Shown in pieces: positions 3,345 to 46,588 of a stretch of 64,000 nt of DNA (within the stretch, counting starts at the first letter, position 1; each line of letters starts with the position of its first letter). A model generated the notes under the pieces. That model did not search any database. It was not told the origin of the DNA and saw nothing but the letters and a program-made list of their open reading frames with translations. The position numbers were made by a program, and so were the translations under genes. Origin of the DNA: Schizochytrium sp. TIO01 (Eukaryota; Protista; Bigyra: Labyrinthulomycetes); contig SMSO01000036.1 in the NCBI GenBank assembly GCA_004764695.1, positions 2,480,001 through 2,544,000 of the forward strand, read 5' to 3'.

Positions 3345-6300
3345 ATGACAGCTCCTTCACCAACAGTAGTGATGGCCATCGAGGGAATGATGTGTCAGAA
3401 AAACTGCGGAACAACAATTGAAAATTCACTACGAAAAGTAACACAGCAGTTCAGTCCTGTGGAAGTTATCGTTTCGCACGCCTTGTCCGCAGCGCTTGTT
3501 TATGCACCCAAGCAGCATCTGAACTCGAATCAGCTAACTGAGGCGGTTGAGATGATGGGATTCGATGCTATCGAAGTTGTTGAACCTGAACATGCCCAAG
3601 CTCTGGAATCGCACCTCCGCCGTGATGCAATTAAACGTGGTGCACCTCATTTCCAAATTATGGTCTTCAGAATCGAGGGTATGATGTGTCAAAAGTCCTG
3701 CGGAACAACAGTTGCTAATTCTATTCAATCAGTAGCACCAAATTCTCACGTTGTGGTCTCACATCCCTTAGCTGCAGCACTCGTAGAAGGCTTGGAAATT
3801 CCGAGTGCAACGACGGTTATTGATTCTATCGAAATGGTAGGTTTTGATGCTGAGGAAGTCTTGGATCCTAAGGAAGAAGACAATCTATGCAAGCAACTTC
3901 GTGAAGAGGCGCGTCTTCGTTCCCCGCCACCCCTTCCTCAAAAAAAGGCGCAACGGTTTAGCACAATGATCACAATTGTGCTGAAAATTGAAGGTATGAT
4001 GTGCCAGAAAAATTGTGGATCCACAGTGAAGAGCTCTCTTCAATCGGCAGCACCAAATGCAAACATTATTGTTTCCTTTGCGCTTGGTGCAGCACTGATT
4101 GAGGGAGCTGAGATCCCAAGTGCTCGTGATCTCATTGAGGCCGTAGAGATAGTGGGGTTCGATGCAGAGCAGGTTTTTGATTATCGTGAGCTCGCCGACA
4201 AACTTCTCAATGAGGAACGTCTTCGCCTGCAAGATGATTTGTCTCTGCCTCTCCCCCCGAAACCTCCTAAACCTAGTTCTTTATTTCTTAAGCCACCGCC
4301 GAAGGCTATTGCCCCAGAGAAAGTGGTTGTATTGAAGATTGAAGGCATGATGTGCCAAAAGAACTGTGGAACGACTGTGTCAAATACACTGAAAGCTGCA
4401 GCCCCTGGGGCCATGGTTCTGGTATCATTTCCCCTAGCTGCGGCATCTATTCGAGGGCCTGCGATCCCAGACGCCAAGGTTCTTGTCGAGGCTGTTGAAA
4501 TAGTTGGGTTTGATGCGGAAGAAGTTTCTGCCCCAGTGGAAGCCCAATCTCTAGCGCAACGACTTTCTCTTGAATGCACTTCTGGTACACCCAAGTCTTC
4601 AGCTTCTGACAGCAAGTCTTCACAAATGGTTCTTTTACGAGTTTTGGGAATGGTGTGTCAAAAGAATTGTGGTTCAACTGTAACGACTGCTCTGCAGCGG
4701 GCGGCACCTCGTGCAGACCACGTTATTGTTTCTCATCCTTTAGAGGCAGCCCTAATTGAGGGAGATGACATCCCACCAGCACATGACTTGGTAAGCGCTG
4801 TTGAAATGATTGGATTTGATGCTGAAGTCTTGAACCCGGTTGGCCAAGACGTTCTTATTCAGGGTTTGCGCATGGCGACTCCCTCACTCTCGGCCACCAC
4901 CCAACATGCATTGCCTTTCCAAGAACATAGTTCAAGCAACAAGGATCAGGATGATGAAAATGGTGGAAGCGAAACAGACCGCCTTATGAGCTTCCAACCT
5001 TCTGGACACAGCAGCACTGATTCAATTGCAATTCGTGTAGATCAAGATATTTCTTCGCTTGCACATTGTCGCCGTGCAGAGCTCCAAATTCAAGGAATGA
5101 CTTGTGCAGCATGCGTTGCCAATGTCGAACGGAACGTGGGTAAAGTCAAAGGCGTGCACTCTATCTCGGTAGCCTTGATCGCCGAAAAGGCATCTATCGA
5201 GTACGATCCTGCTGTTGTAAACGGCCAGGCACTTGCAGACGCTGTGAGTGGGCTCGGTTACCGTGGTACGGTGCTTGAGGAGGACCTACCCTTCGGAGAA
5301 GGCCAGGCAGGGATGGGCACTCTTTGTTTGAATGTTTGGAGTTTAGGTGGAGGTCCTGGCTTCGAAGATGTCACGAAGCATCTTCTTGAGCCTTTACGCA
5401 ACACTGAGGGTGTCATTTCTGCAGATGTAGATCTCTGTGGGCTCTTGAAAATCAAACATATTAACGCAGAGATCGGCGCGAGGACACTTTTCGAGACTGT
5501 TGAAAAACTGGGGTACGGCTGTGAGCTTGCTCAGAATGAGACCGCTGCTGCTTCTGATGATATGATGGTGTACTACCGCCAAAAGTTTTTTGGATCGCTT
5601 TTGTTCACTTTCCCAATCATGTTCCTCAGCATGGTTTGCCCTTCAATTCCTTTCCTGATGGGGCCTCTCGAGCATATGGTAGGTCCTCTCGCCGTGAACT
5701 ACCATTCGTTGCTACTTTGGCTTTTGACCACCCCAGTTCAGTTCTACTTCGGTGGTCGCTTCTATAGGAACGCCTTTAACGCCCTACGCCATGGTGCAGC
5801 CAATATGGATGTCCTGGTGGTTCTTGGGACCAGCTCGGCTTACATCTACTCCATGGCCTCCTTAGTCATTGCGATTTGCAAAAATCACGTGTCGAAGGAA
5901 GGCATGCGCGATGCTCATTTCTTTGAGACCTCAGCCATGCTTATTTCTTTTATCTTGCTTGGCAAGTTTTTAGAGTCTTACGCGCGGAGTCGCACCGCAG
6001 ATGCAATTACTGCTCTGATGGATCTCCAGGTAGACTATGCTACGCTTGTTGAATATGATGTAGCGGATGACCCAGCGGAGAAATCGAAGAGTTTATCAAA
6101 CAAAAACCATGCGTCAGAGCGTGAAATTGATGTTCGCCTTGTGCAGATGGGTGATCACTTGAAGGTTTTTCCAGGACAACGAGTTCCTGTTGATGGCGAA
6201 ATCGTCTCAGGATCATCAAGTGTGGACGAATCAATGCTCACGGGCGAGGCAGCACCAGTGCAAAAAACAATTGGGGATAACGTGACTGGTTGCACTGTGA

Positions 6301-7925
6301 ATTGTACAGGCACTTTTATTATGAGGGCAACCCGCGTAGGATCAGATACTGCCTTGGCCCAGATCATGCGCCTTGTGGAGGACGCTCAGACAAGCAAGGC
6401 GCCAATTCAGGAATATGCTGACACAGTGGCAAAATACTTTGTTCCAATTGTTGTGATGGTAGCCTTTCTTACATGGTTCGTGTGGACTTGTATTATCATG
6501 TTCATGAAACCCACACCTTCGTACCTGGAGCATCTCGATCCTTCAGAAGAGTTCGTCTTTGCGTTTAAGTTTGGTGTCGCAGTGCTTGTTGTTTCATGCC
6601 CCTGTGCCCTGGGTCTCGCAACACCGACCGCTGTTATGGTAAGCACTGGAGTTGGTGCACGCCATGGTATCTTGATCAAGGGTGGTGACGCGATCGAGGC
6701 AGCTTCTCGTGTAACTGCAGTCGTATTTGACAAAACAGGTACGCTTACCAAGGGAACTCCTATTGTAACTGAGGTACTTAACACAAGTTCGCCACCTATT
6801 CGTGATGAGGAATTGTTTGCGTACGTTGGAGCTGCTGAGAAAGGGTCTGAGCACCCTGTTGCAAAAGCAATTGTTCAGTTTGCAGAAAGACACTGCTCTC
6901 CTGGTGCATTGGGACAATATATTGCAGATAGTTTTGAGGCTTTACCCGGCTTTGGCATTGATGTGACATTTGCAGACCAGACACGTGTCCTCGTAGGTAA
7001 CCGCAAGCTTATGAAGCGAGCTCAAATCTCTATCCCGTCTGAGCATGAATCCTTCATGAACGAACACGAGGGGCAAGGTACAGTAGTTCTTATCGCTTTT
7101 CAGCCGGCTGTTCGGCCTGGAGACATGCCTTGTTTGGAGGTTGTAGGTGCCATTGCAGTTCAAGACCCTCTTAAAGAAAATGCTGCTTACGTTGTAAGCA
7201 TGCTTAGAATGCTGAATGTGCGTGTATATATGTTATCTGGCGACAACCAGCGCACGGCATCTGCAATGGCTGCCCGCTGTGGAATCGACCCAGACTGTGT
7301 GTTTGGCAATTGTTTGCCCAAACAAAAGTCAACCCGTATTTCACGCCTTCAGAAGGAAGGGTATCGCGTGGCAATGGTTGGTGATGGTATTAATGACTCG
7401 CCAGCTCTGACCTTGGCCGATTTGGGTGTGGCTGTTGGTGCTGGCACAGATATTGCCATGAAATCAGCCGACGCAGTTCTTATTCGCTCGAACCTGCTTG
7501 ATGTTGCTGTTCTACTGGATATGGCCCGCGCTACGATTTCTCGCATCCGTCTGAACTTTTTCTTTTCTTTCATCTATAACCTTTTGTGCATTCCGCTTGC
7601 AGCTGGTTTGATGTATCCTTGGTTTCATGTGCGCCTGCCGCCAGCACTTGCTGGTTTCATGATGGCAATGTCATCTGTCTCGGTGGTGTGTTCCTCCCTG
7701 CTTCTTCGCCGTTATCGCCCGCCTCGATTCATGAATGTAGACTTTGATCTTTCAAGTGATACGATGAAGTTTCGCACGCAGCAGCCCCGTTCTTCGGTTG
7801 AAATGATTGACTACAATCTGAACAGACTGCGCCCAGGTCACGGCATCCGGTATGACAAGATTCAGCCGTCCAGCGAATCGGAGAATGACAGCCTCGAATC
7901 AGATGATGAGCCGTTGCGATACTAA
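3345..7925 (+). CDS. ATP7: Copper-transporting P1B-type ATPase (ATP7/CCC2/RAN1-like), ~1526 aa
   Basis: Motifs LTGE, TM CPC ([12 protein letters not shown]), DKTGT, SEHP, GDGIND, YN and MxxSS (the Cu+ P1B-1 signature). Five N-terminal GMxCQKxC HMA repeats plus one canonical GMTCAAC and one Cys-less HMA-like unit. First ATG is 3345; the ORF track starts at a TTG (3207). Confidence 0.95.
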
Positions 7926-9230
7926 TCATCCTCGAAAACGAGAAAAAGCTTTTTCTAAAAATATACCATCTGCAACAGTAAACACTGACCTGAGGCTGTT
8001 TATATTAATTCGCCCGTATAGGCAACTCTCTTCTATTGCTGCATGCAGCATCATGTTTTTTTAGTTGAAATAGAATCCCTATAAATTGACTGTTTTATTA
8101 CTCTAGCTAGATAGATGTACCTTTTTGCGTCATGCTTCTTCCTTTCTGGAAAGGAAAGAAGCCCCTCCTCAGTCCGTCGGGTGCCCTTGACATCGTGTCT
8201 ATTACTCTGAATATTCGAGTGACTCGCACTAAGCCAGCACTAGCGGGTCTGGCTGCATCAGCCGTTTGTATGCTTACTATTCCGAACGTTCCACTTGCAG
8301 GAATATTTGGAATTCTTCAGCGTGGATTGATTCGTTCTTCGGACTCTTTCCATGTTAACATTGAGAGCAAAAGAACTCTCTACTCTCCTGCTACTACTAC
8401 ACCTCACCTCCATTGCCAACAACCTGCGAACGAACCATAGCCCACCAACTCCGCATCCAAGCGTTCCATGGAGCAAGAATCGTAGCAGTTCACGGCCTCG
8501 TTTTGATTCATCTCATCATCTCATCGAGCGCCTTGCCTTTTGTACAATCTTCGTCGAAGAAGTATTCCCTAACCAACTCATAGAGGGCACGCTAGGACCC
8601 CGCAAAAGCAAAACCATCGCAGAGGCCATGGAAACGCAAGAATTGCAATGTCCATCGACGACCTCGAAGGTACCTACCTACCCACCACCCACTTGGTAGC
8701 CCAATAGTGGTCCAGAAGCCTCGCTCTCTGCACCGACCTCCACCGCAGCAGCGTCTAGGCCGAGTTCGCGAGCCCCACGCACGCAATGAGGTCGTTGAAA
8801 GCAGCCCGCAGCTTTTCCGGAGGGAGCGGGACCCCTCAAAAGCCCAATGCAATTAACTAATCAATTAAATGCTCAATTAATTGATCCATCCATCGATCAA
8901 TGAATCAATTGCGCTTCTTTGGAGCTGTTCTTCATCACTTTTGCTCTCGAGAGCTGAGATCGAATAGTTCTGACGACTGACGGAGAAGAAGACATTGGCA
9001 GAATCAGCTGTCCCTGAACAGATAGATGGCAATGGCGATCATGGCTGGATGGCTGGCTCGCTTCGAATCGCTTCGAGGCGACAACAGTATCAGAGAGGAC
9101 GATGGAATTGCAATTGGTACGACGACCATTGTCGATGCGGACACTGACGTTGGAAACGAAGTGAGCGAATCAATCACATGAATGACATGAATACCTGTGC
9201 ATCATCCATCTATCTATAAACAAACCAACG

Positions 9231-9794: not shown

Positions 9795-10128
9795 TTGCGA
9801 CTAATCATCTGAGAAAGGATGGAGGTAGGTGCTTGCTGGGTTGTTTGTTGCTGTTTGTTGCTGTTGTTGCGGATATTATTAATAATATTGGCGATGACAG
9901 TAAATGAAAGATAAATAATAATATGGAAAGAAAACAAATGATATTCATTCAATATTTAATTTCGTTGTTCTTCCACAGGAAAGGGCAAGGCAAAGCCAAG
10001 TCTGCGGAGGCGCAGAGGAAGAGCAGGGACGCTCTTGACAGACCTCGACGGCGGCGCGTACGCACGATCTGGACAGGCCGGCCTTCTATCGCTTCCTTCC
10101 TTCCGGCTCCCTCCCTCTCTCCTCCGCC

Positions 10129-12580
10129 ATGGCGGACGAGGAGTCCCACATGCCTGCCTCCACGGAGGCCATCTCCCTAGAGGCCTCCACGCACAACCCG
10201 TCCTCCGACGATGCCGACGACGCACCCCTCGCTGGCATCGAGGATGCCGACGACCGCCCCCGCGACGACGATGACCTCGAGGAGCCCTCCGCCGGCACCG
10301 ACAACCGCTGGCACGACGTCCTCGGCGGCGGCACCGTCATGCGACGCACGGTAAGCCCGGGTTCGGGCCCGAGTCCGGAGTACAAATGTGCAGCATACGT
10401 GCACTACGTTGCACGCATTCAAGGTCACGAGGACACGTATGAGAATACTCGGGACCTTGGAGAAGATCCTGTGGAGGTGGTGATTGGGGACAATATTATG
10501 GAGACCGTGGTGCCGGGTCTGATGTTGGGTATTAGATTGATGAAAGAAGGCGAGATTGCGGACATAAAGGTTAACCATCGGTTTGGGTATGCCGACCAAG
10601 GGTTCAAGGACTTGGTTGGTCCGAATGAAGATATTGAGTTCAGAGTAGAACTGGTCCGGGTGGGCGAAAGGGAGAAAGAACCGGTGGAGATGGACCCCCA
10701 GGAACTTATTCATCATGTGCGCAAGCGCAAGGAGAGGGGAAATGCGTTCTTCGCGCTCGATCGCATCGATAAGGCGTTGCAATGCTATCAAGGATGGACT
10801 CAAGAGGAGTGAGTCTCACCTACCGCCAGCACCACAACCTGGGGAAGAACCGCCCCCGGAGCCGGAACATGACCCGTACAACGATAACCCAGAACTCATC
10901 AAACTGCGAGCTCAGTGTGCAGGAAACGCCGCTGCATGTTTCGAGAAACTCAAGAAGTGGAAGGAGGCAGGAGATGCATGCGTTGCAGCGCTCGCACTTG
11001 ACCCGCAGAACCTCAAGTATCTCCTTCGCGCGGCAAATGTATCAACCATGCGGGGAAACTTCGAGGAGGCCAAGGCCTGCCTCCACACAGCTAAACTCGT
11101 GTACCCGGATAATCCGTCTGTATCCGTTGCAGTGCGCAAGTTTAAGTCTCATGTCAGTGCTTATAAGGAGAAGGAGAAGGAAGCATACGGTGGCTTCCTT
11201 CACCAGTCGGGAGCTTCCTCGTCATCATCCTCATCGTCTTCTGCACAAGCTGCAGAAACAACAACAACGCCCTCCACACGGGCAACATCTTCATCATCTT
11301 CAGCATTCGCCTCTTCGCCTCGTACAACAGGATCTTCATCGTCTTCATCCTCCTCTTCAATGTCTGCTTCGCCACAACAGTATCAATCAGGAATAAATGA
11401 AAGTGTGCCGCACGAGTCTGGATCTTCAGGCGTAGGATCCTCATCCTCAATATCTGGTTCGTCTTCTTCAGTAGCGTCTGGATCTGCTGCTGGATCACCT
11501 GCTTCGAGCACAGACTCTCCAGCCGCTTCTGATGACCCTCATCCCGTGGCAGCTGGGGAGCCAACATCTGGCACGCACAAAAGAAGACGTCGCATGAGCA
11601 CTCAGCAGCGTCTCTTCAACCTCATGGTCCTTCTTGCTCCGACTTTAGTTGCTGTTCTTGCATTTGTGGTTATTCTTCCTTCTCAGGCTACCGCAGCACC
11701 AGTTCTGGCAAAAGAAACAAACCTTATGGGGGCATGGGCAAATGAGTCTAAAGACCTCGCTCAAAAAATTCTGCGTGATGCATCTTTGGACTCTCTAACT
11801 TGCGAGGGAAGGCAGCAACGAGGATCCTGCTGTATCTGCCAAAATATTATGCAGCAGGCTGCAATGCGCCAAGAAAAGGCCAAGAATGCCTACCCGGAGC
11901 GCTCTGTGCAGGTGGGTTTTCGTCAGGACGGAAAGCGCTTTTTGCCATTCCACCTCTCAGAAGAGGTTGGACTCACCATTTTAGAGCGCATTTGCGGTCG
12001 CTTCCCAGTAGATATCCCGGCTGATCACCCAGATATGGATGAAGCTAAGAGGGCTTCTAACAAGGCTTGCCATGCCTTCCTGGACAGCTTTCACGATGAC
12101 TTCCTCAAAGTGTTGACAACGCCATTTCCAGATGAAGCATCTTTGATCAAACGAGCCTGTTCTGAGGTTATTGGGGTTTGCCCAGTGCGCACACATAAGT
12201 GGTATGAAACAATTCGTGAACTTGGGTTTGCATACATGAACATGCCGTGTACTGTTTGCACTGGCGTAAGTAATTTGCTCACTGAGACAAAGCAGAACAC
12301 CGATCTCGATACTCTTTTGGCTTTGCTCCGGGCCCCTTCATCGATGTGTGCTCAGTTGAGGGTAAATATTCCAGCACAGGAAACAAGGGTTTCCCAAGTG
12401 GCCAGTGTGATTGGCGATGCATGCATTGATTTGATCTACGAAAACCGCGCTGTGATCAAGGAGATTCTGAAAGGCGACAACTCTACGGAGGGTAGCTCAT
12501 CTTCCTGTCCTCGTGAGTTAAATATTCAGCTTTGTGCTGCGCACTGCCCTGCCAGTGTTCTTGAAATGGCTGAAATATAA
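10129..12580 (+). CDS. FKBP-type PPIase + TPR + Ser-rich linker + TM/signal-like segment + two saposin-like (Canopy/CNPY-like) domains; interrupted by a +1 frameshift at ~10788-10789 (~816 aa if repaired)
   Basis: FKBP domain (VHYVARI...VVPGLMLGIRLMKEGE...FGY...IEFRVEL). TPR1 KERGNAFF..DKALQCY continues as KDGLKR in the +1 frame, then TPR2/3 (GNAAACFEKLKKWKEA..ALALDPQNLKYLLRAA). KRRRR precedes hydrophobic LFNLMVLLAPTLVAVLAFVVIL. Two CxxC...C...C...C...C saposin patterns follow. Confidence 0.8.
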
Positions 12581-13381: not shown

Positions 13382-14788
13382 TCATTCAGTTTCTTGGGTC
13401 ACCTCCTCTACCTTTGCCTCTGCTTCTGCGCCCCGGACCTCTCGCTCTAAATCTTGATCAAGTTTAATCCCGGCAGCGTCCAAGGCCTCGCAGACCCACA
13501 AAGGTACCTTATCTCCAGTGAATTGGTTACGCAAGAATTCGTTGACAAACGCCGGGTACCGGTCCTCCAGGATAGCCTTCCGCATCTTGCGAACAAGCTG
13601 TAAAAGATACACCAAATTGTGATGCGTGACAATGCTTGCAACGCCATTATCTGCGGCCTGCTTAAAGAGAAAGTGCAAACTAGCACGTGAAAAAGCGGGA
13701 AAACTAGCCCCTTCCTTTGCCGGGCGACAAGCCTGGCAAGGACAATTCGGCGAGATTGGGCTAGCATCCGAAGCGTACTTGGCATGTTTGAGTTTCATGA
13801 GCCCAAAGTCCGTGAACGCAGTGCCAAACCGGGCCGTGCGAGTTCCATACACAGAGTCATACATGTCAACACCAAGTGCGCTGCAGACAACAATATCTAG
13901 AGGATGTCCCACGCCCATGAGGTAACGCGGCTTATGCGTCGGCAGATGGCGGCAGCAGACATCAACAACGCGCCAGAACTGGTCTTTGGACTCTCCTCCA
14001 GCAAGGCCTCCAATGGCGTATCCTGGAATATCTTCATCACGTTTGGCCATCTCGGCCAAGCATCGCTCGCGAAGACCGCCTGGAGCCACATCCAGACCAC
14101 CCTGGACGATTGCGAAAAGGTTTTGATGCTGAGGTCCGCTCTTGTAGCCATTCTTGGCATCCTCCTCACCACCACGTTTATGTTCCTTAATACAGCGGTC
14201 AAGCCATCGAACTGTGCGGTCCGTAGCCTCTGCAAAGCGCTGATCGTCCACAGTACAAGAGTGGATGACATCGTCAAGCATCATCACAATATCTGACCCG
14301 ATTCGATGCTGCGTGCGAATGGACTCTTCTGGCGTGAGCATGAGTTGAGTTCCGTCGGAGGGAGACTGAAAGTTTACACCTTCTTCAGTAATCTGCGCGA
14401 GACGCAGCAGCGAGACCATTTGGAATCCACCAGAATCCGTCAAGATGTTACCATTCCAGTTCATGAATTTGTGAAGACCTCCCATACGGCGCAAGCGGTC
14501 CGCACCGGGTTGGTTGGCGAGGTGGTAGGTGTTGCCGAGAAGGATTTGACAGGAGATGGGATCATCCCGCATCTCCTGCGTTGTGATGCCTTTGATCGTG
14601 CCCTTGGTGCCCACGGGCTGGAAAACCGGCGTCGCCACAGGTCCATGAGGCAGACGTAGCGTCAAGGCGCGGGCCCTGCCGCACGTGCTCTCTACGCAGA
14701 CGCTTAGAGCAGGTCCACACACAACGAAGCCATCGTCACCGGAGGCAGTGGAGACCTCTACCGCGGGCGTGCCATCGATCTGCGCCAT
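13382..14788 (-). CDS. QTRT1: Queuine tRNA-ribosyltransferase catalytic subunit (eukaryotic TGT), 468 aa
   Basis: Motifs TPVFQPVGT, GNTYHL, TDSGGFQMVSL, LDDV, QGG, GGLAGGE, YLMGVG and the Zn site CPCQAC...H. The Val and Gly at the specificity positions are of the eukaryotic queuine-inserting type. Confidence 0.95.
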   Translation of the reverse strand: MAQIDGTPAVEVSTASGDDGFVVCGPALSVCVESTCGRARALTLRLPHGPVATPVFQPVGTKGTIKGITTQEMRDDPISCQILLGNTYHLANQPGADRLRRMGGLHKFMNWNGNILTDSGGFQMVSLLRLAQITEEGVNFQSPSDGTQLMLTPEESIRTQHRIGSDIVMMLDDVIHSCTVDDQRFAEATDRTVRWLDRCIKEHKRGGEEDAKNGYKSGPQHQNLFAIVQGGLDVAPGGLRERCLAEMAKRDEDIPGYAIGGLAGGESKDQFWRVVDVCCRHLPTHKPRYLMGVGHPLDIVVCSALGVDMYDSVYGTRTARFGTAFTDFGLMKLKHAKYASDASPISPNCPCQACRPAKEGASFPAFSRASLHFLFKQAADNGVASIVTHHNLVYLLQLVRKMRKAILEDRYPAFVNEFLRNQFTGDKVPLWVCEALDAAGIKLDQDLEREVRGAEAEAKVEEVTQETE

Positions 14789-29798: not shown

Positions 29799-32204
29799 AT
29801 GGCGGACGATGGCGCAGGCCATGAAGATTCGGAGCGGGCTCCATCGCCTCGGGATAGTAATGACAGTATTGCTCCAACGCAAACTAGCACAACTGCGGCG
29901 ACGGCACGGAGTCGGGTTGAAGCCTTGCAAAGTAATCGTAGGTTAACCACCACAGGTGCAGGAGCGGCGCATGAGGCAAGGAGGTTACGAGAAGCACAGG
30001 AACAACGAGAGGTTCAGGTGAATAGCCTTCGTGAACACATCAAAACTCTCCAAGCCAAGCTACAAGCAGAGACAGAGGTAAACCAAAAGCTAGAAGATGA
30101 AAACACTGAGCTAAAAGAAACTTTGAAGCTTCAGCAAAGCGAACTTGACGAAGCCAAGCAAGCAGCTGCTCGACGTGCAGAGCAAGTTGAGGATGCTGCA
30201 AAGCGGGCCCAAAGTAACGATGAAGACTTCGATATGCTCAGTGAAGCCCTTGCAGAAAAGGAGCAAGAATCTCGCGTGAGGGCTATGCGCATTGTAGAGC
30301 TAGAAGAAACGTTAGAGCGCATGCAAAGTGAAGACGTACGCCTTCGCACAATGCTCCGGAAAGGAACAAATGCTTCAGCTGCTATTGATCTAAAACCAAA
30401 AACGTCCACTGAAGATGTCTGTTTAAGTGCTCGCAGTTTTGCGGAAAACGAGCTTGTTGCCCTCCGTGATGAAGCACTTAATATAAAAGAGAAACAACTT
30501 GCATTACTGAATTCCAGTAATGTGGCTCTTCGTGAAAATATTGATCACCTTGAAACAGAAATGCAACGCATGCAAGTTGATCTTATTGCAAAAGACAAGA
30601 TGCTAAACTCTATGCGCGAGAGCAAAGATGCGGCAGAGTCCCGCATTGAAGAGCTTTTACACAAGATAGAAGTTAAAAAGGGTCGGGAGGCAGCTATGGA
30701 GGTTGCGACGCAACAGAACGCACAGTTATTACTCTTGCTGCAACAGCATGAGGCATCAAATGAAGAGCTTCAATCACAAAATGAATCATTGGAAGAGGAG
30801 CTTCAGACAGCTAAGGAAAAGGTTAAAAATGTCGTGCGTCAGAATGCAGATCATGAAGCTAATGTTACGACCATGAGTGCAGAAGTAAGTAGGCTAAAAC
30901 GTGAATTACTTACAATGCGTAGCTCATGGGAAAAAGAAGAAACACTGCTACGAAGAAAGCTTAAAAAGCTAGAGGCAGAGTCATCGAAAACCATTTCTGT
31001 GCAAAGAGATGAATTACGGGACCGCCGAGAAAAACATTACCAAATGTTAGAGCGTATGCAAATCGCAGAAGACAAAGTTCGTGCAGCAGAGGATAAGGTA
31101 GACCTTATGAATAAGGAGATGGACGAATTCGACGAGGAACGTCAGGAGCTACAGGCTCGTGTTGCAGAAATTCGCCGCTGGGCTGATTCACGGGAAGCAC
31201 AACACCGCGAGGCTCTTTTAGATGCACACAACCAGCGTGATGAAGCTCGGAAATACGCTTCAGAAATGGAGAAACAGCGAGCAGCATTGACGCTGCAGCT
31301 TCATGAGATGTCAGGAACTGTATTGAAAGCTGTTGACAAACAAAAGGGAGCAATTGAAGAAGTTTCTCAGGCCAAGAGTGAGCTTACAGATAAAGAGATT
31401 GAGATACAGCATCTTCAAAAGCAGATGATTCGAGAAGGAAATCTGCAAGGTAAGCGTCGCATGAAGGCCGAGCTTGAGCAGCGCACACTTGCATCACAAC
31501 TTGATTTACTGCGAAGGGAGAATATGGCACTTGCTGAAGCAACGAATGCAACATATGAAGATCAAGCAAGTCGCTCTGATGCACTAGCAAAACGTTGTCT
31601 TAATTTAGAAGCTCAAATTGAAGAAGCAACCAGTGCTTTAGAGGCTCGTTTGCATGGAATTATGACGTACGTCGAAGCAGCTGTGCTTGTTCGGGGGAAC
31701 AATGGCTATCAGTTCAGTTTGCGTGGTTGCCGTATTGGGTCCACACGTACGATTGATCCTATCACTGCAAATAAGGTTGTTATGCAGGTTTGCAAGCATC
31801 TAGCTGGACTCTTAAGTCGTTGTAAAGCTGCAAATGACGCAAGTGTAACATTGGACCTTGCCAACAATGCTCTGTCAGATGAACATGTTCCAGAGGCTTT
31901 GGGTATACTTGTTCAAGCGCCGTTCATAGCATCTTCCATTACATTAAATCTGTGTGAGAACGAGATTTCCCCAGCTGGTTTGAGACTGTTGGTGCTTGCA
32001 CTACAGAAAAACCCACGTGTGCAACATGTTTTCGTCCACCGGGATGGCACGATTCAAGGTTTACGCGGCTCGGAGGTCGTTTATACACTTGAGGTCGCTT
32101 CAAACAAGCAAAGGCCCGAAGATTCATGGACTCAACCAGCTGCAGTATTAACCCAAGATACTATTCCTTCTCCTCGAACATTGCCACGCCTCCCCTCGAG
32201 GTAA
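29799..32204 (+). CDS. Long coiled-coil protein with C-terminal RNI-like leucine-rich repeats, 801 aa
   Basis: About 560 aa of E/K/Q/L/A-rich heptad sequence, then LRR motifs FSLRGCRIG, LDLANNAL and LNLCENEIS..GL. Confidence 0.85.
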   Translation: MADDGAGHEDSERAPSPRDSNDSIAPTQTSTTAATARSRVEALQSNRRLTTTGAGAAHEARRLREAQEQREVQVNSLREHIKTLQAKLQAETEVNQKLEDENTELKETLKLQQSELDEAKQAAARRAEQVEDAAKRAQSNDEDFDMLSEALAEKEQESRVRAMRIVELEETLERMQSEDVRLRTMLRKGTNASAAIDLKPKTSTEDVCLSARSFAENELVALRDEALNIKEKQLALLNSSNVALRENIDHLETEMQRMQVDLIAKDKMLNSMRESKDAAESRIEELLHKIEVKKGREAAMEVATQQNAQLLLLLQQHEASNEELQSQNESLEEELQTAKEKVKNVVRQNADHEANVTTMSAEVSRLKRELLTMRSSWEKEETLLRRKLKKLEAESSKTISVQRDELRDRREKHYQMLERMQIAEDKVRAAEDKVDLMNKEMDEFDEERQELQARVAEIRRWADSREAQHREALLDAHNQRDEARKYASEMEKQRAALTLQLHEMSGTVLKAVDKQKGAIEEVSQAKSELTDKEIEIQHLQKQMIREGNLQGKRRMKAELEQRTLASQLDLLRRENMALAEATNATYEDQASRSDALAKRCLNLEAQIEEATSALEARLHGIMTYVEAAVLVRGNNGYQFSLRGCRIGSTRTIDPITANKVVMQVCKHLAGLLSRCKAANDASVTLDLANNALSDEHVPEALGILVQAPFIASSITLNLCENEISPAGLRLLVLALQKNPRVQHVFVHRDGTIQGLRGSEVVYTLEVASNKQRPEDSWTQPAAVLTQDTIPSPRTLPRLPSR

Positions 32205-36764: not shown

Positions 36765-39700
36765 ATGCCGGCTGGGCCTAGCCAGGTAGCACATCGCCGG
36801 TTAGGAAGAGGGCGGGGTGGTAGTAGCACAATACCAGGAACAAGAATGCAGCAAATGGCGAAGCACCGCTCTGAGGACGGAATACCACATGGGGGTGCAC
36901 AGCTACGACGGAAGCAGCCAATAAGTGGTTCACCAGAACAGTTCAAACAACCACAAAAACATCAGCAGCAACCGGGAAAGCAAGCAAAGTCTACTGCTCA
37001 TCGATCACAACCCAAAGCGCCGTCCGCTTCAAGCGGGAGTGCCGCAGACGTACCTGAGGAACTAGCTATTTGGCTTCGAGACCTTGGTCTTCTCCCGTCA
37101 GAGGTCTTGCACGGGCCCGTGACAGCAGCAGATGTCAAATTATTACGTTCAGGTGTCGTGGCCGCCCAAGTCATGCAGCAGTGTCTCGCTCGTGAGATGC
37201 CTGATGCTATGGTATTGGGGTCAGCTAGCCCTGCAGACACATGGGCTGAAGTCCTCCGTATTGCTAGTGAGTATACTGTTGCTACAGAGATCACCACACA
37301 AGATGGCGTCGCCAAAGAGCTTGTGCGCGGCAACCTGCGTGTGATTGTTGAACTTCTTGTGAGGCTACAGGATATTTTTCAAATGATACGAGCCAATGAA
37401 GAGCTCCTGCGCAACCCCCCCTATGGTAGCTATTAGTGTCTCAGAGGCAGAGATGAGCCGCCTTCGCGCTGGCGCTGATGCAGACTCACTTGGAATGTTC
37501 CTCATTGGTTCGCTGGCTGGACGGGTCGGGGTGACCCTTGAGCAGGCAGCGGCACTCTTTAATGGCGCAAACACCAATTATTTGAGCCAACTTCTCATGC
37601 ATGGCCCACAGCACAACATCCGTCCCATCTTTGATTGGGTTCATGAGCTGTACGAAAGTAGAGAGCTCCTAGCAGAGCTCGCTAAAACAGTGCCTTCAAT
37701 TGATGACAGTACTGGGCTTTTTCGAATCCTAGGGATGTTTTTGCTTGCCCCTGATGAAAGTGTCTGTGTTAAAGCATGTACATTATTTGCAGAAGTTGCC
37801 AAACAAGTTGCCCAGGAGGTAAGCGAAGCACCTCCCTCGCCTTCAGGTGGTCAAGAAAAGCGACAAGTCTACCCATGGAGCGCCCACGAACTAAGTGATA
37901 CTCTTTGGAATTACATGCGTTCTGGCTTTGGCCTTGCCTCTTTCCTTTCCTGTTGGATGAATATGCCAAAGTGTCGCCCTCTACTCGCAAATATTCTCAG
38001 CGCTTCTGCGGCAGCAGATTCTGGTTCTGATCTGACATCATGGTTTCGAGTAGACGTGCACCAGGCACTACCCAACGCAGTCGTGAACATGAGCTTTGTA
38101 CAAGAGCTATTGCAGGTTATTGATGACAACGCACTGCCGCTCGCCCATGAACTCAGCCAGCGCGACCTTCCTCATAGTCTCACAACCTACGCTCTTCGAT
38201 TTGCAGAGCCATGTCATTGTAAACCTGTTCGTCAAATGGCCATTGGTCTCTTAGCTCAACTTTGGGCAGTCTTCACCACAGACATTGAGCGGGAACCAGG
38301 GCTTCCAAAGAGTCTTCTGATCACAATTAGCAAGGGGTTTCGAGAGACTGGTTCTCAAGAACTGCAATTGTACAGCCTTTCTACCTGCTTCAAACTACTT
38401 CAACGATTTGCAGATACTCACCAGCCCTTTGCCCCCTTCCTTTACAAGACGCTTATTTTTGCGCTTATTGAATTCCATCGAGATGAAACTACGCGTAACT
38501 TTATTGTGCAGCACATGGCGGCAGCTCTGGCACGTATGCCCTTTGCGCCTGTGAGCGTGCTGGTCATGCCTTTGGTTAAGCAAATTACTTTGCAAGGATT
38601 TTCGGAACTTGATCTAGCATTTTTACACGCGTTAGCACAACATCAACGTCTTTCAGATAAAGACGCATTAAAGCTTGCAGAGCTTGCTGCACGTATTGCA
38701 ATCAACGATCAGGAGTACAGTAACCATGCAGCTGACCTATTACTTGCTTTGATTCAGCGTTTTGCGCTGAGTCATGTTATTATGCGCTTCGTCATTCGTC
38801 TATTTGAGGTTTGTGCGAAATTATTGGAAAGTCCTGAATCGTCGCCTGAAGAAACTGCCCGTAAAGGTCTGCGAGTTGGACTCTTGTCAGCGATATTGCG
38901 TCTTGGTATTCCACAACTCAATGATCACCTTCTTTCTGGTGTTATCGAGCGCCATGAGGTGTTACATGGCCTCATGGATCAAGCAAGTAAATATCGGAAA
39001 GCTGTACCTAAAAAACGTCCACGTATGCACGTTGATACAGCTCCAAATGCGATCGACAGTAACGGGGCTGGTCTGGGCTACTACTCACCATCTCCAAAGA
39101 GCGAGCCGAGCCCGCAAATAGCTTCTCCAATGGGCTCCATGGATGCTCAGCAACCATCAAACTCTCCGATGTTATCTCCTGCATCGATTATTGAACCTTC
39201 TTCTCCGTGGTCTTCGAAGTCAACAATGGCCCCAATCCCAGTGCCAAATGTTGAAGAGTGGGAAAACAATGCAAGCAAGACTCCACAGCCAGGGACTACT
39301 TTTCATGAGTACCAGCAAGCCCAGCCAGCGGTAAAGCCTCGGCAAACTGATGTACAAACAAGGGCTGCTCACCGTAAGACACTCTTGATGCTTCCCCAAG
39401 CCTTGCCAGAATTCGATGAAGATCTCTTGAAAGAGCGACTTGAGGAAGACACCATTGGGCTAGGGACTGGAGTACGAGAGCCTCGGTTTGGTACAGGCTT
39501 AGCAAAAGCAAGGCGCGAGAACATGCAAAAGAGCAAAAAAAGTGTCAATACTGCTCGCCAGGTTCTTGAGCGAGCACTCCCCTCGTTTCCTGGCCTCGAG
39601 CAAGCATTTGCTGCTCTCGACGTAGCCGACCTTGGATACGTAGACAAGGTTGTATTTTTACGAGCCATCAATTCTGATGAAGACAGCATTGCAAAACGTG

Positions 39701-42285
39701 CAATTCTTGCATGTTCCTTCTCACAAGCAATGCGAGACCGCAAGGTCCAAGAAAAGGTGAGACGTTTCCAGTCTTTGGAACCAGGTTCTATCCGATTAGT
39801 TGAGCTGCAGTCAGTTCTTGTTGATTACTTTTGGGCAAAAGAAAGAGAGCAAGAACAGGAGCGAGCAGCAGCTTCCCGCAAGGGCAAGGTTTTGGCATCG
39901 AAGACAACTTTGCACCCATTCAACCGAGAGCCTACCTACTCATCTTTTCCGCAAGCTGTGGCAAAGGTTGTTCAGCAGGATATCGAACGTTGTAGACAGA
40001 AACGCCTGGCTGTGCAAGAAGCTAAACAGACCATGATTGAAGTGGAAAGACGTAAGGCACGTGAGAGACGTCAGATTTTACGTCAAAAGTATGACCAGCG
40101 CATCCAAGAACGACGCGCACGTGAGGGAGATCCATTTAGTGCAACTCCTAATAAAATTCATCAGCAATTGGATCTTGCAAAACCCAACGACAGCTTTTCG
40201 AGCAGGAATTCGGGTGAAACTTCTCCAAGGGTCGGTGCACACACACAATATAGTATAGATTGTCGTGGAGAGATCCGTGCACTTGTGAGGTTTGATGATC
40301 TCTTACGAACAATATTTCGCCATGCCGTGGAGCCTGGCACTGGGCTTGGGGTACAACTTGGTAAGTCATTTGACGAGATGCAGTTACAACGCGGTCTACT
40401 TTCTGTTCAACATTGGTTACGACTTTTACGTAGCTATCGCCTTGTACCTCAGGTGATGACACAAAATGAAGCCAAAGCAGCGTTTTACAAAGGAAAATCG
40501 AAGGATTCCGTTGATGCAACCTATGAAGAATTTGTCCATTCTTTGGCGTACTGCGCTGCTACAATTACACCGTTTTCACTTGAGCCTGAGCCCACAAGAC
40601 GGATTGGTGCCTTACTTGCCTATCTGCGTGAAACAGCAATAGAGGATGCGCCTAAACAGGTGCATCAAGAGCATGTTGACCCGGTTCAGAAACGCATCAT
40701 TATGTCTTGGGCAGGAATGGAGGATGTTCCAGAGTATCGACACATGATTCCTGAAGGTTTGGTTGAGTCAGATACCCGACAAGAAGCGTTTGGTGCAGCT
40801 CTGGAGGTTCTTGATGATATCTTAGCCTCGACTTTCAATATACACCTGCTCATTCCATTGCCCACACGTCCAAAGAATAAGCGTAACGAGCTTCTGCAGG
40901 CTGTAGTAGGCCCTACAAAGGAATTTGAGCCCACAGTTCCCATCGATACGCGTCTTTATCCAGCAGCGCGGATTACTGAACACCAGGAGGAGCTCCGGCG
41001 TCAACGTCAAGCAAGAGAAGAACGTGTAGGATTTGGCCGAAACTTTGCTCAAGCTCCTGGTGTGTCCACAACCCACACCAAAGAGTCCGCACATGCAGGG
41101 GATGGTGCGCTACCAAAGTCACCTCCAGTAAAACATACAGCTCCAGAAGTGCCACCATTATCAGCGGTGGAGCAAGCCTTTTTAACGCGAATGGAGGAGA
41201 AAGCAGCGGAATCTAAGTTCTTACAATTCCGCCAACAAGAAAAGGCCGAAGTTCGGCAACAGCGAGAGGCCAAACTGAAAAAGCTTGAGGACAAAAAACG
41301 AAATGAGAGGCTCATAAAGCGTCGTGCAGAACTCGAAGCACTCAAGAGAGAGCAGGCTAAAATCCGCGAAAATGCGGAAACTGAGGCACGCAAATCTCAA
41401 CGCGAGCAAGAAGAGGCTGAACGTGCTATGAAAGAGCGCAAGCAAAAGGAATTTGAAGCTCGGCAAGCACGAAATCATATACTTCTGGAAAAGCACATTG
41501 CTGAGAAACATGCTAGAGAGCAAGAGGAGGCAAAAATGAAGGACGAGGAAGAACGAGCTCAAAGGAAAGCAGTAAAAAATAAATTCAAGGTCATTCAAGG
41601 CCGACAGGCTCAAGAAGCCGCAGATGAGGCTGTAGCTCTCCGCTTGAAACTAAATCGAGAGCTCGAAGCTGCTTTAACAAAACAGAAACGCGAGCTTGAT
41701 ATTGATAAAAGACGAGTGGAAATCAAGGCGAAGAGCAATGCCGCTAGTAAGCGTGCAGAAGAGCAGCGCATGATGAAGGAGTTAAAGCAGAAGAAGCGAC
41801 GAGAACTCCAAGACGAGCGTCGAAAAAATGCTGCAGAAAAGCTTCGAAAAGAGAAAGCTACTGCCAATGCACGAAAGGCAGAAATTGAGTTAGAGGCCCA
41901 ACGCAAGGCTGATGAAGTGGAGGAACGACTGCGCGCAAAGAATGAAGAACAAGAACGACGCCGAAGACAGACTGAAGTGCGTCAGAAAAAAATCAACAAG
42001 CTTGTGAATAATTTCCAAGATGTTGCAAATCAGGAACTCGCTGATATGGCCAATAAGTTGGATGTCGACCTTCGCGAAATCAATACATCTGCTGCTCGCG
42101 CTGTTTCTCCTGCTCCGGATGATTCGATCCAGAGTGATGATATCAAGAGCCTAGAGCCAGCCAGTGCCAAAATACAGGACACCACATCGACTTCATCATT
42201 TGTGGATAGTAATGTGAAAGAACAGAATGATGGTGAGATCGAAGCATCCATTTCTGAAAGCAAAGATGCTAAAGAAGTTGAATAA
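36765..42285 (+). CDS. Large protein with an N-terminal CH-like domain, helical ARM/HEAT-like region, degenerate EF-hand-like motifs and a charged C-terminal coiled coil; +1 frameshift in the C7 run at 37415-37421 (~1839 aa if repaired)
   Basis: ORFs 36732-37436 and 37396-42285 overlap; removing one C gives ELLRNPPMVAISVSE. CH-like pattern ELAIWLRDLGL..LLRSGVVAAQVM..W..ELVRGNLRVIVELLVRL. The family assignment is tentative. Confidence 0.75.
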
Positions 42286-44282: not shown

Positions 44283-46588
44283 ATGGCAGGCGACGAGTTG
44301 GGCAGCAAACTACCCAGCAGCTTGCCAAGCCTGGACAGCATTGGAGATGGCTCTGTTCTGAGCAGTGATGGGGAAGATGTAGATGCTGACTTGATTATTG
44401 ATGATGATGATGAGGTAAGTTGAGGTGGATATGATAAGGTACGGGTGTCTGTCAGAAAACTAACCAGCTGGTTAACTGTATTTGTGCGTGGATGCATTTT
44501 AACGTGAGCAACCAAAAGGATGGATATGGTACTGATTCGTTTGAGGATGAAGTTAATCGCATAATTCAGGCAGATGTAGGACGACCTGCCTCAGCACGGC
44601 CAAGCTCAGCGAGGCCAGGTTCGGCTAGATCAGAGTCTGCACATGATACTCAGAGTCAGGAACTTGCGTTGCCCTACGAAGCCTCGGCAGAATTGAAACA
44701 GGCCAGCCCTGAGCAACCTGATACTGAGCAAGTCCCGCTTAATTTGCCATCTCCTTCGCCGACAACTGTAGAAGAAATTCCGAAGTTTCATCAGGAAGGC
44801 TCAAATGCTGAAAATGAAGAGAAACAGCTTGAGAGTAAAAGTATCACGTTTGCGCCAGGAAGTGCAATGAATTCTCAGGAGCCACATGCGCATGTGCCAG
44901 AGAAGCTTAAACATCCTAAGAACTTTGACTCGGACAAAGTAGCTAAGTTAAACTTCCCTGATCTGCCAGGCAGCACCAAAAATGATGATAAAGCTCCAAG
45001 GCTGTCGATTGAATTGGAGCCCTCACGAATCAAGGTAGAAACAATGAATATCGATACTGTAAAAGCCTCGCGACCGCGGAGCGCTCATTCTGGAAGTGTT
45101 CGGTCAAATGCTGCTCCTCCAAGCGATAACAAGCAGAGTAGATCAGCTAGAGGGCCTGCAAAGTTGGTACAGCCTAGTCGAAGAAAAAAGTCTTCGACTC
45201 AAGTGAGAACTGACCGCAATCAGAGTCAGTCCCCAAGAGATCCCCAGGTAGCATCTCCGAGTCCTCGCCGCCGCCCGAAATCATCTTATGGTGTAAGGAC
45301 CCCCCATGGGCATGCTCTTGAGCGAGCAGATAAGCGCAACGCTCAGCTTCTTGCGGAAAATTTATTATTAAAAGCTGAAGTGGAGAGATTAAATCGTTAC
45401 CAGCATCAACTTCCAGCAAACCAGCAACAACAACAAGAGGATCATACTGTTTATCCACAACAGACTGTTGATTTCCTCAAGCCCAGCTCAAACTGGGCAC
45501 TCCAAGTACCCATTCGTAGTACAGGAGAATACCGTGAACGTCCAAAGACTGCAGGCACCTTTCTTCTCAATGGAACTATGACGCCGCAAGAACGTACAGA
45601 GCTGGCGAAGCAGTTCAGCAGAGCGAGCAAACCAACTCGAGAAGATGCTCTTCGTCGTCGCGAGGCTTCCTGGGATTCCACTACTTCAGTACCACGCAAT
45701 CTTCTCTCGCGGTACCTTCCACCACCTATAAAGCAACCCCCCAATCATGTGCTTCAAGCTGCCAAGCCTGAAACCAAGCACCTATTACCTCGGCGACCAT
45801 CAAGACCTGCTACTGCGATGCCCAAGTCGAAACGAGGAAAGAGACTTGTTGCTTCTCTTGCAAATCCAAAAAGTGGAGGCAAACCACACCGACCTAGACA
45901 CGTAGAGAGGAACGACTTGTCTCGTAAAAAGGAAGCAGCTGACTTCGGGCCCCGCACAGGCTCTCCCCCGTTAAGACCAGCATACCTTGATGATACTGAG
46001 GCAAGCCCGAGGCATCATCGTTTAGAAAATTCTCAAGAATATGTGAACTGGACTCAACAAGGTCTATTTTTAGAGAGCTCAGAGCGTCTACGTGCTAGTT
46101 CGCGCGACATGTCTCAAATGGATGTACTCTTGCGAGCAATTGACAATCCAAAACACTTGAAAACTTCCTACGAACAGGCATGTGGACTAGTCGAGAAACT
46201 CTGGGCGGATTTATGCACAAATGACAAAGAGACGCAAGAGTTCCGAACAGAGTTTTTCGGAGAATGCTCTACTGGAAATTATGCGCATGTACTGTCATAC
46301 ATGACTCGTCTTACAAGTCTCCGCAACAAACTTTTGAATGTGTTTGAGCTCATCAAGCGTCGCGAGCGCCTTGTAGACTCAATGAGCAAGGTTCTCAATC
46401 CTTTAGACACTCGTCCACAGTCCCCAAGTCGAGTGACAAGCGCTGCCGAGGAAATGGTAGAATTAAGATCTTTAAATCACAGCGTTCTAGCGCTTATTTC
46501 AGAAATTTCAAGAGAAACTGGTGAACCTTTAGTATTACATGGTCTTAACTATGCTCACAAGGTCCGATGTGACCTGGTGCTTCCCTAA
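44283..46588 (+). CDS. Disordered basic/Ser-Pro-rich protein with a C-terminal helical domain resembling the CCDC87/MAP65-Ase1 family; exon 1 44283-44414, exon 2 from 44519 (or 44570) to 46588
   Basis: ATG 44283 exon ends GAG|GTAAGT; in-frame acceptors end at 44518 (AAG) and 44569 (CAG). The C-terminus LVEKLWADL...IKRRERL...TGEPLVLHGLNYAHKVRCD resembles my recollection of the CCDC87-type GEPVxFxGxxYxxKM motif. Confidence 0.7.

Follow-up and report, generated by a model that had tools for sequence, protein, structure and literature searches.

Several chaperone-related proteins, among them DNAJB12/14, ERdj1/Sec63 and CRELD1, have portions on either side of the ER membrane, and CRELD1 combines a DUF3456-type region with membrane helices. 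None of these is known to combine a luminal Canopy protein with a co-chaperone of cytosolic Hsp90. Human FKBP8 (FKBP38) and Arabidopsis FKBP42 (TWD1) are tail-anchored proteins in which one FKBP domain is followed by three TPRs, a helix-7 extension and then a membrane helix. ER-anchored FKBP8 folds ABC transporters with Hsp90, which requires K308/R312, helix 7e and the hydrophobic client-binding cluster 94/96/97/158/162, and its residues 92-100 are unique among the human paralogs (PMC13470449). HSP90 is also bound by TWD1, which controls the biogenesis of ABC transporters (PMC12484997). The coordination of cytosolic-domain folding with the membrane and luminal parts is described as poorly understood, and the same study, in whose main text CNPY and GRP94 do not occur, asks about dedicated ER factors (PMC13470449).

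The Canopy proteins (CNPY1-4 and MZB1, the last also called CNPY5 or pERp1) carry DUF3456 and are defined by a six-Cys saposin pattern, and a C-x6-C element is described for CNPY1, 2 and 5 (PMC6566547). CNPY2, 3 and 5 have been found with Grp94/BiP (PMC6566547), and CNPY3 is a gp96 cochaperone (PMC2982182). The gene described here joins these two known kinds of chaperone helper. It lies in a 64,000-nucleotide stretch of the Schizochytrium sp. TIO01 genome, which is called the window below; the gene's features are collected in Table 1.

Table 1. Features of the fusion gene, in window coordinates
Feature	Position	Strand	Basis
Fusion gene	10129..12580	+	One ORF, 816 aa in intact copies; P0016 mapping
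FKBP domain, FKBP8/TWD1 type, W-x-D-hydrophobic-hydrophobic-G-x-G motif	10309..10665	+	Pfam FKBP_C E 6e-12; P0024 PDB matches
Three TPRs and helix-7 extension (xYGGFL)	10714..11200	+	TPR_2, clamp residues, helix-7 motif
Extra base, frame-shifting	10790..10792	+	Missing from 8/8 sequencing runs examined
Ser-rich variable linker ending in KRRRR	11201..11593	+	12.6% mean pairwise identity; alignment
Internal ATG, non-conserved	11594..11596	+	C at -3
One hydrophobic helix with predicted N-cytosol/C-lumen orientation; Pro conserved at mid-helix and at the end	11612..11680	+	Hydropathy, identity
Signal-peptidase-like small-X-small site (ATA/A)	11681..11695	+	One register in 6/7; shuffle P 0.003
Unit 1, Canopy-type predicted saposin fold, CCxC, beta-hairpin insert, C-x6-C	11735..12181	+	DUF3456 20.4 bits; model and fold search
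Unit 2, repeats unit 1 in degenerate form, lacks the hairpin and a KDEL-like tail	12200..12547	+	hhalign; saposin C; caenopore-5

As written, the window splits the gene into two overlapping plus-strand ORFs, one (10129-10812) covering FKBP_C and the start of the TPRs, the other (10649-12580) the TPRs, the Ser-rich linker, the hydrophobic helix and the Cys-rich tail. One base at 10790-10792 is absent from all of the sequencing runs that were checked (eight of the 24 listed, from eight studies). In addition, P0016, a natural transcriptome ORF of 816 aa, is intact; it maps to the window at 10129-10791 and 10790-12577 (~99%) and differs from the two halves at nine of 816 residues. The frame break is therefore an error or a private lesion of the window's assembly; a single ORF encodes all the parts, as the initial annotation had held. 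Programmed frameshifting was ruled out, since the extra base is missing in all eight runs. The contigs of these runs show no intron joints across the gene. A pyrimidine tract ending in CAG, at 9960-9979, lies just upstream of several contig starts (9964-10043) and is possibly where an intron of the 5' UTR has its splice acceptor; the contigs showed no joint there.

The genes next to the fusion offer no functional clue. A heavy-metal P-type ATPase of 1526 aa is encoded at 3345-7925 (+); about five repeats at its N terminus carry another motif where CxxC would be usual and are followed by a standard HMA domain, the only HMA domain that Pfam reports at E 1e-5. A queuine tRNA-ribosyltransferase gene at 13382-14788 (-) is convergent with the fusion gene, and one contig of run X19 covers both. 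At 8331-8856, two runs differ from the window by 10 inserted bases at 8628 and the loss of 3 bases at 8682, and the reading frame here may be broken in the assembly too. Three further plus-strand ORFs, at 29799-32204, 37396-42285 and 44492-46588 (801, 1629 and 698 aa), have no Pfam match at E 1e-5.

Relatives were searched for with the 328 residues from ATG 11594 against all 50%-identity representatives, which gave 11 matches. P0005-P0010 make up six FKBP-TPR-helix-Canopy fusions, the three proteins P0012-P0014 are Canopy proteins that lack FKBP, and P0011 consists of two units only, with neither helix nor FKBP; P0015 (ankyrin/helicase) was discarded as a chance match. Together with the window's own cluster there are seven fused proteins, 37-54% identical to one another, and the order of parts is the same in all: an FKBP domain, then three TPRs, a single hydrophobic helix and a pair of Cys-rich units. 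The initial annotation had proposed looking for the same fusion in related organisms, and the named carriers include Hondaea fermentalgiana, whose protein is publicly annotated simply as FKBP42, and Mucochytrium quahogii. An identical architecture in seven distinct proteins argues against a chance joining; the fusion is real and conserved in several thraustochytrid-type marine protists. In the residue comparisons of the seven, P0016, P0020 and P0024 stand in for their clusters.

When the luminal profile was used in word-index searches, the sole addition was P0025, which resembles P0011; these searches missed known members and are thus insensitive. Both P0011 and P0025 lack a signal peptide and begin within a unit or directly ahead of the conserved Trp, and may therefore be gene-caller fragments. 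Scans of metagenome contigs found no relative of the fusion, and two ESM Atlas queries gave no match at >=0.9, which counts neither for nor against it. Judged by title and abstract start, none of the literature matches listed describes the architecture (supplements and most subscription papers lay outside the literature searched), and the FKBP8-Canopy fusion has apparently been undescribed so far, as was first supposed.

The Ser-rich linker varies in length among the fused orthologs. Its KRRRR, at 11579-11593, is confined to the window's lineage, as is Met 11594, and in none of the six orthologs do the 15 residues ahead of the helix include a Met. Neither a special role for KRRRR, which is not conserved, nor, as a conserved feature, the secreted isoform from ATG 11594 that the initial annotation had suggested is supported. 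A broader version, in which a second start at this ATG or a separate transcript yields a secreted Canopy, or in which relatives have two genes, is very improbable. In run X17, two contigs (9989-11322 and 11451 onward) do part in the Ser-rich linker, and P0011 and P0025 do carry two units alone. However, the latter look like fragments, the Met is missing in all six orthologs, single contigs cover the whole ORF in six of the eight runs (X1, X7, X2, X15, X19 and X20), and fusion ORFs are complete in transcripts from two species. The contigs of run X10 part around 10683-10784. Gene-sized contigs in X1, X2, X15 and X20 look transcript-like, which is not proof of transcripts.

For the N-terminal half, the general label of FKBP-TPR protein can be narrowed. 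The best PDB sequence matches of P0024 are FKBP8 (two entries) and AtFKBP42, with E values of 2e-20 to 5e-18, and FKBP51 and FKBP52 rank below them. W93, D95, G98 and G100 (FKBP8 numbering) are invariant in the seven fused proteins. FKBP8 positions 96, 97 and 158 are hydrophobic in all seven, position 162 in six and position 94 in two, single changes at position 94 being tolerated in FKBP8 (PMC13470449). TPR_2 matches three stretches in P0004, and the helix-7 motif xYGGFL is present in every fused protein. The five clamp residues K, N, N, K and R, of which K308 and R312 are given in PMC13470449, are also kept in all seven. By best-match ranking, motifs and clamp, the N-terminal half is classed as FKBP8/TWD1-type; it keeps the N-terminal WxDILG motif of these proteins. 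At the FKBP12 active-site positions, placed by motif, D37 is never D and W59 is L or V. Both are changed in 7/7, so the PPIase site is likely degenerate and isomerase activity low.

On the luminal side, the landmarks of the initial annotation are in place (the CCxC at 11828, the VQVGFRQDGK segment, the CxxC at 12248 and the last Cys at 12547), and the FKBP domain, the three TPRs, the linker and the helix also lie where it had put them. Its two saposin-like units fared differently: the first stands, including its Canopy-type segment, while the second is a repeat with weaker fold evidence. DUF3456 passes the Pfam cut-off in five of the seven fused proteins; the window's unit 1 scores 20.4 against 21.1, and P0004 and P0005 have no DUF3456 match at full length. 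The Cys residues of unit 1 are invariant in the six-Cys saposin pattern, C-x6-C is found in 7/7, and the hairpin insert is shared with Canopy and MZB1. A structure model built from 12 sequences reached a pLDDT of 87.8 and a pTM of 0.77, against a pLDDT of only 38 from single-sequence prediction. By sequence and model, unit 1 is Canopy-like with a predicted saposin fold.

Fold searches leave some room for another function of the luminal units, namely as membrane-tethered saposin-like domains that handle lipid or sterol, or that bind clients without GRP94, in which case the link to the ER Hsp90 would be wrong even for an uncut chain. The five best VIA-align rows align to unit 1 and are all saposin-fold proteins: saposin D (Z 8.7, rmsd 2.1, 77 aligned), granulysin (Z 8.4), NK-lysin (Z 8.0), Na-SLP-1 and pERp1/MZB1 (Z 7.2, rmsd 4.3, 113 aligned). 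MZB1 thus stands below saposin D, granulysin and NK-lysin by Z, although Z differences of up to 1 count as ties, values of this size are middling for helical domains, and the MZB1 alignment is the longest among the saposin-fold rows. Foldseek ranks MZB1 first (E 0.35, probability 0.97), with no row at E <=0.001. CNPY4 modulates membrane sterol, but the recombinant protein, according to a section heading, does not bind the ligands tested (PMC9065090). The sequence affinity is to DUF3456, with weak matches to SapB_1 (E 0.04 or worse) in the fused proteins, and unit 1 has both the hairpin insert and C-x6-C; a lipid role, or client binding without GRP94, is decidedly unlikely.

Unit 2 aligns to unit 1 in hhalign with a probability of 88.8 and a score of 40.7, the best of 40 column shuffles scoring 18.9, and by this comparison it is a degenerate repeat of unit 1. 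It weakly matches saposin C (E 0.044) and likely has a saposin fold. Its best saposin match, caenopore-5 (Z 5.1, rmsd 2.9, 78 aligned), is outscored by unrelated rows (Z 5.5-6.0). On the luminal units, a surface for GRP94 binding could not be made out. Unlike Canopy and MZB1, the fusion has tandem units, an extra Cys pair and an attached cytosolic co-chaperone; it also has no N-terminal signal peptide and mostly no KDEL-type tail.

Also related to the luminal half are two Canopy proteins of stramenopile type that stand alone, P0014 (oomycete Globisporangium polare) and P0012, which the unit-1 profile matches at 83 and 100 bits. They have the same Trp...CxG...CCxC start and the same Pro-spacer-Trp geometry as the fusion but differ from it in having a short N-terminal signal peptide, an xQEL tail (KQEL in P0014, HQEL in P0012) and no FKBP-TPR part. 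P0012 has an unusual Canopy architecture of its own, with three Canopy-like units and EF-hands, a signal peptide in front, HQEL at the end and the shared N-terminal motif.

The two halves are joined by a single hydrophobic segment, located 362-494 residues from the fused proteins' N terminus. Its best hydropathy window is 2.4-2.95 in all seven, the next best being <=1.8, and its identity is 45% (core 65%) against 13% in the linker and 16% in the spacer after it. K/R outnumber D/E ahead of the helix in six of the seven, which fits the predicted N-cytosol orientation. In P0012 and P0014, a signal peptide of 9 and 13 residues, respectively, ends in Pro and is followed by a small-X-small site and, five residues on, by the conserved Trp. 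The fused helix shares this Pro/site/Trp geometry and is 18-21 residues long (18 in four of the seven), which suggests that it likely descends from a Canopy signal peptide that was lengthened. This apparent origin sets it apart from the membrane helix of FKBP8 and TWD1. The fusion also has about 280 predicted luminal residues past the helix, and is thus not tail-anchored unless cleaved. With no tail anchor, no N-terminal signal peptide and mostly no KDEL, it would act like an FKBP8/TWD1 plus a Canopy protein yet strictly belongs to neither group.

The initial annotation had proposed either a bridge across the membrane or cleavage after the helix, and the evidence on this point conflicts. If signal peptidase cleaved here, it would give back the two ancestral proteins, FKBP8 with a tail anchor and a tandem Canopy in soluble form, and the fusion would merely provide 1:1 co-expression. 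The small-X-small site lies 3-5 residues past the end Pro in six of the seven proteins; in the remaining one it comes one residue sooner. Its middle residue is polar or charged in all seven, and the site-to-Trp distance is +4 or +5 in four, matching P0012 and P0014. The -3/-1 register, conserved in 6/7, has P 0.003 under within-spacer shuffles, in a test that was devised post hoc, is anchored on a chosen Pro and counts related sequences as independent. A precedent is provided by iRhom2, an unrelated protein that also has a long cytosolic N terminus, then a helix and a signal-peptidase-type site, and in which signal peptidase partially cleaves the chain next to a helix that lies ~400 residues into the protein (PMC7618786). 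One ortholog, P0024, retains the tail TKEL. Against cleavage stands the length of the helix, as signal peptidase excludes segments over 18-20 residues (PMC8584900). The KDEL-like tail is also missing in six of the seven fused proteins, so that a cleaved luminal product would not be retrieved by the KDEL route; one of the six has a possible xxEL relic, and the window protein ends in MAEI. A cleaved polyprotein is rather less likely than not, but close behind the reading favoured below.

The reading favoured here, tentatively and at a little less than an even chance, is that of one chain, mostly uncut in the ER membrane, which would act on shared membrane-protein clients from both sides. The chain would have a type II topology, and we infer its ER residence, its binding to Hsp90 and a partnership with GRP94 or BiP. 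The cytosolic FKBP8-like half would recruit Hsp90 at the ER membrane, as FKBP8 does, while the tandem Canopy half would help to fold luminal domains, perhaps with GRP94 or BiP, both halves presumably serving common clients. Such a protein may have arisen when an FKBP8 gene captured a whole Canopy gene, the Canopy signal peptide taking the place of the tail anchor.

An intact chain is consistent with the retention of the fusion at 37-54% identity, with the conserved clamp and hydrophobic FKBP8 positions 96, 97, 158 and (in six) 162, and with a helix longer than the signal peptides of P0012 and P0014; loss of the xxEL tail would be expected if an anchor had replaced retrieval. Counting against it are the small-X-small site, kept although the spacer is only 16% identical, a helix that in four of the seven is at the signal peptidase limit rather than past it, the TKEL of P0024, the scarcity of hydrophobic residues at FKBP8 position 94 and the iRhom2 precedent. 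Partial cleavage would fit a mostly intact chain too. A stricter form, in which the single chain is a bridge coupling cytosolic Hsp90 to ER GRP94 on one client and the old signal-peptidase site serves as an uncoupling switch, is unlikely.

The natural joining of an FKBP8-type protein to a Canopy protein suggests a candidate luminal partner for FKBP8-type folding. If the chain were cleaved, the locus would encode a cellular polyprotein in which a signal peptide has been reused as a tail anchor. If the bridge is true, FKBP8 and CNPY, which are separate proteins in animals and plants, would be predicted to pair on shared clients.
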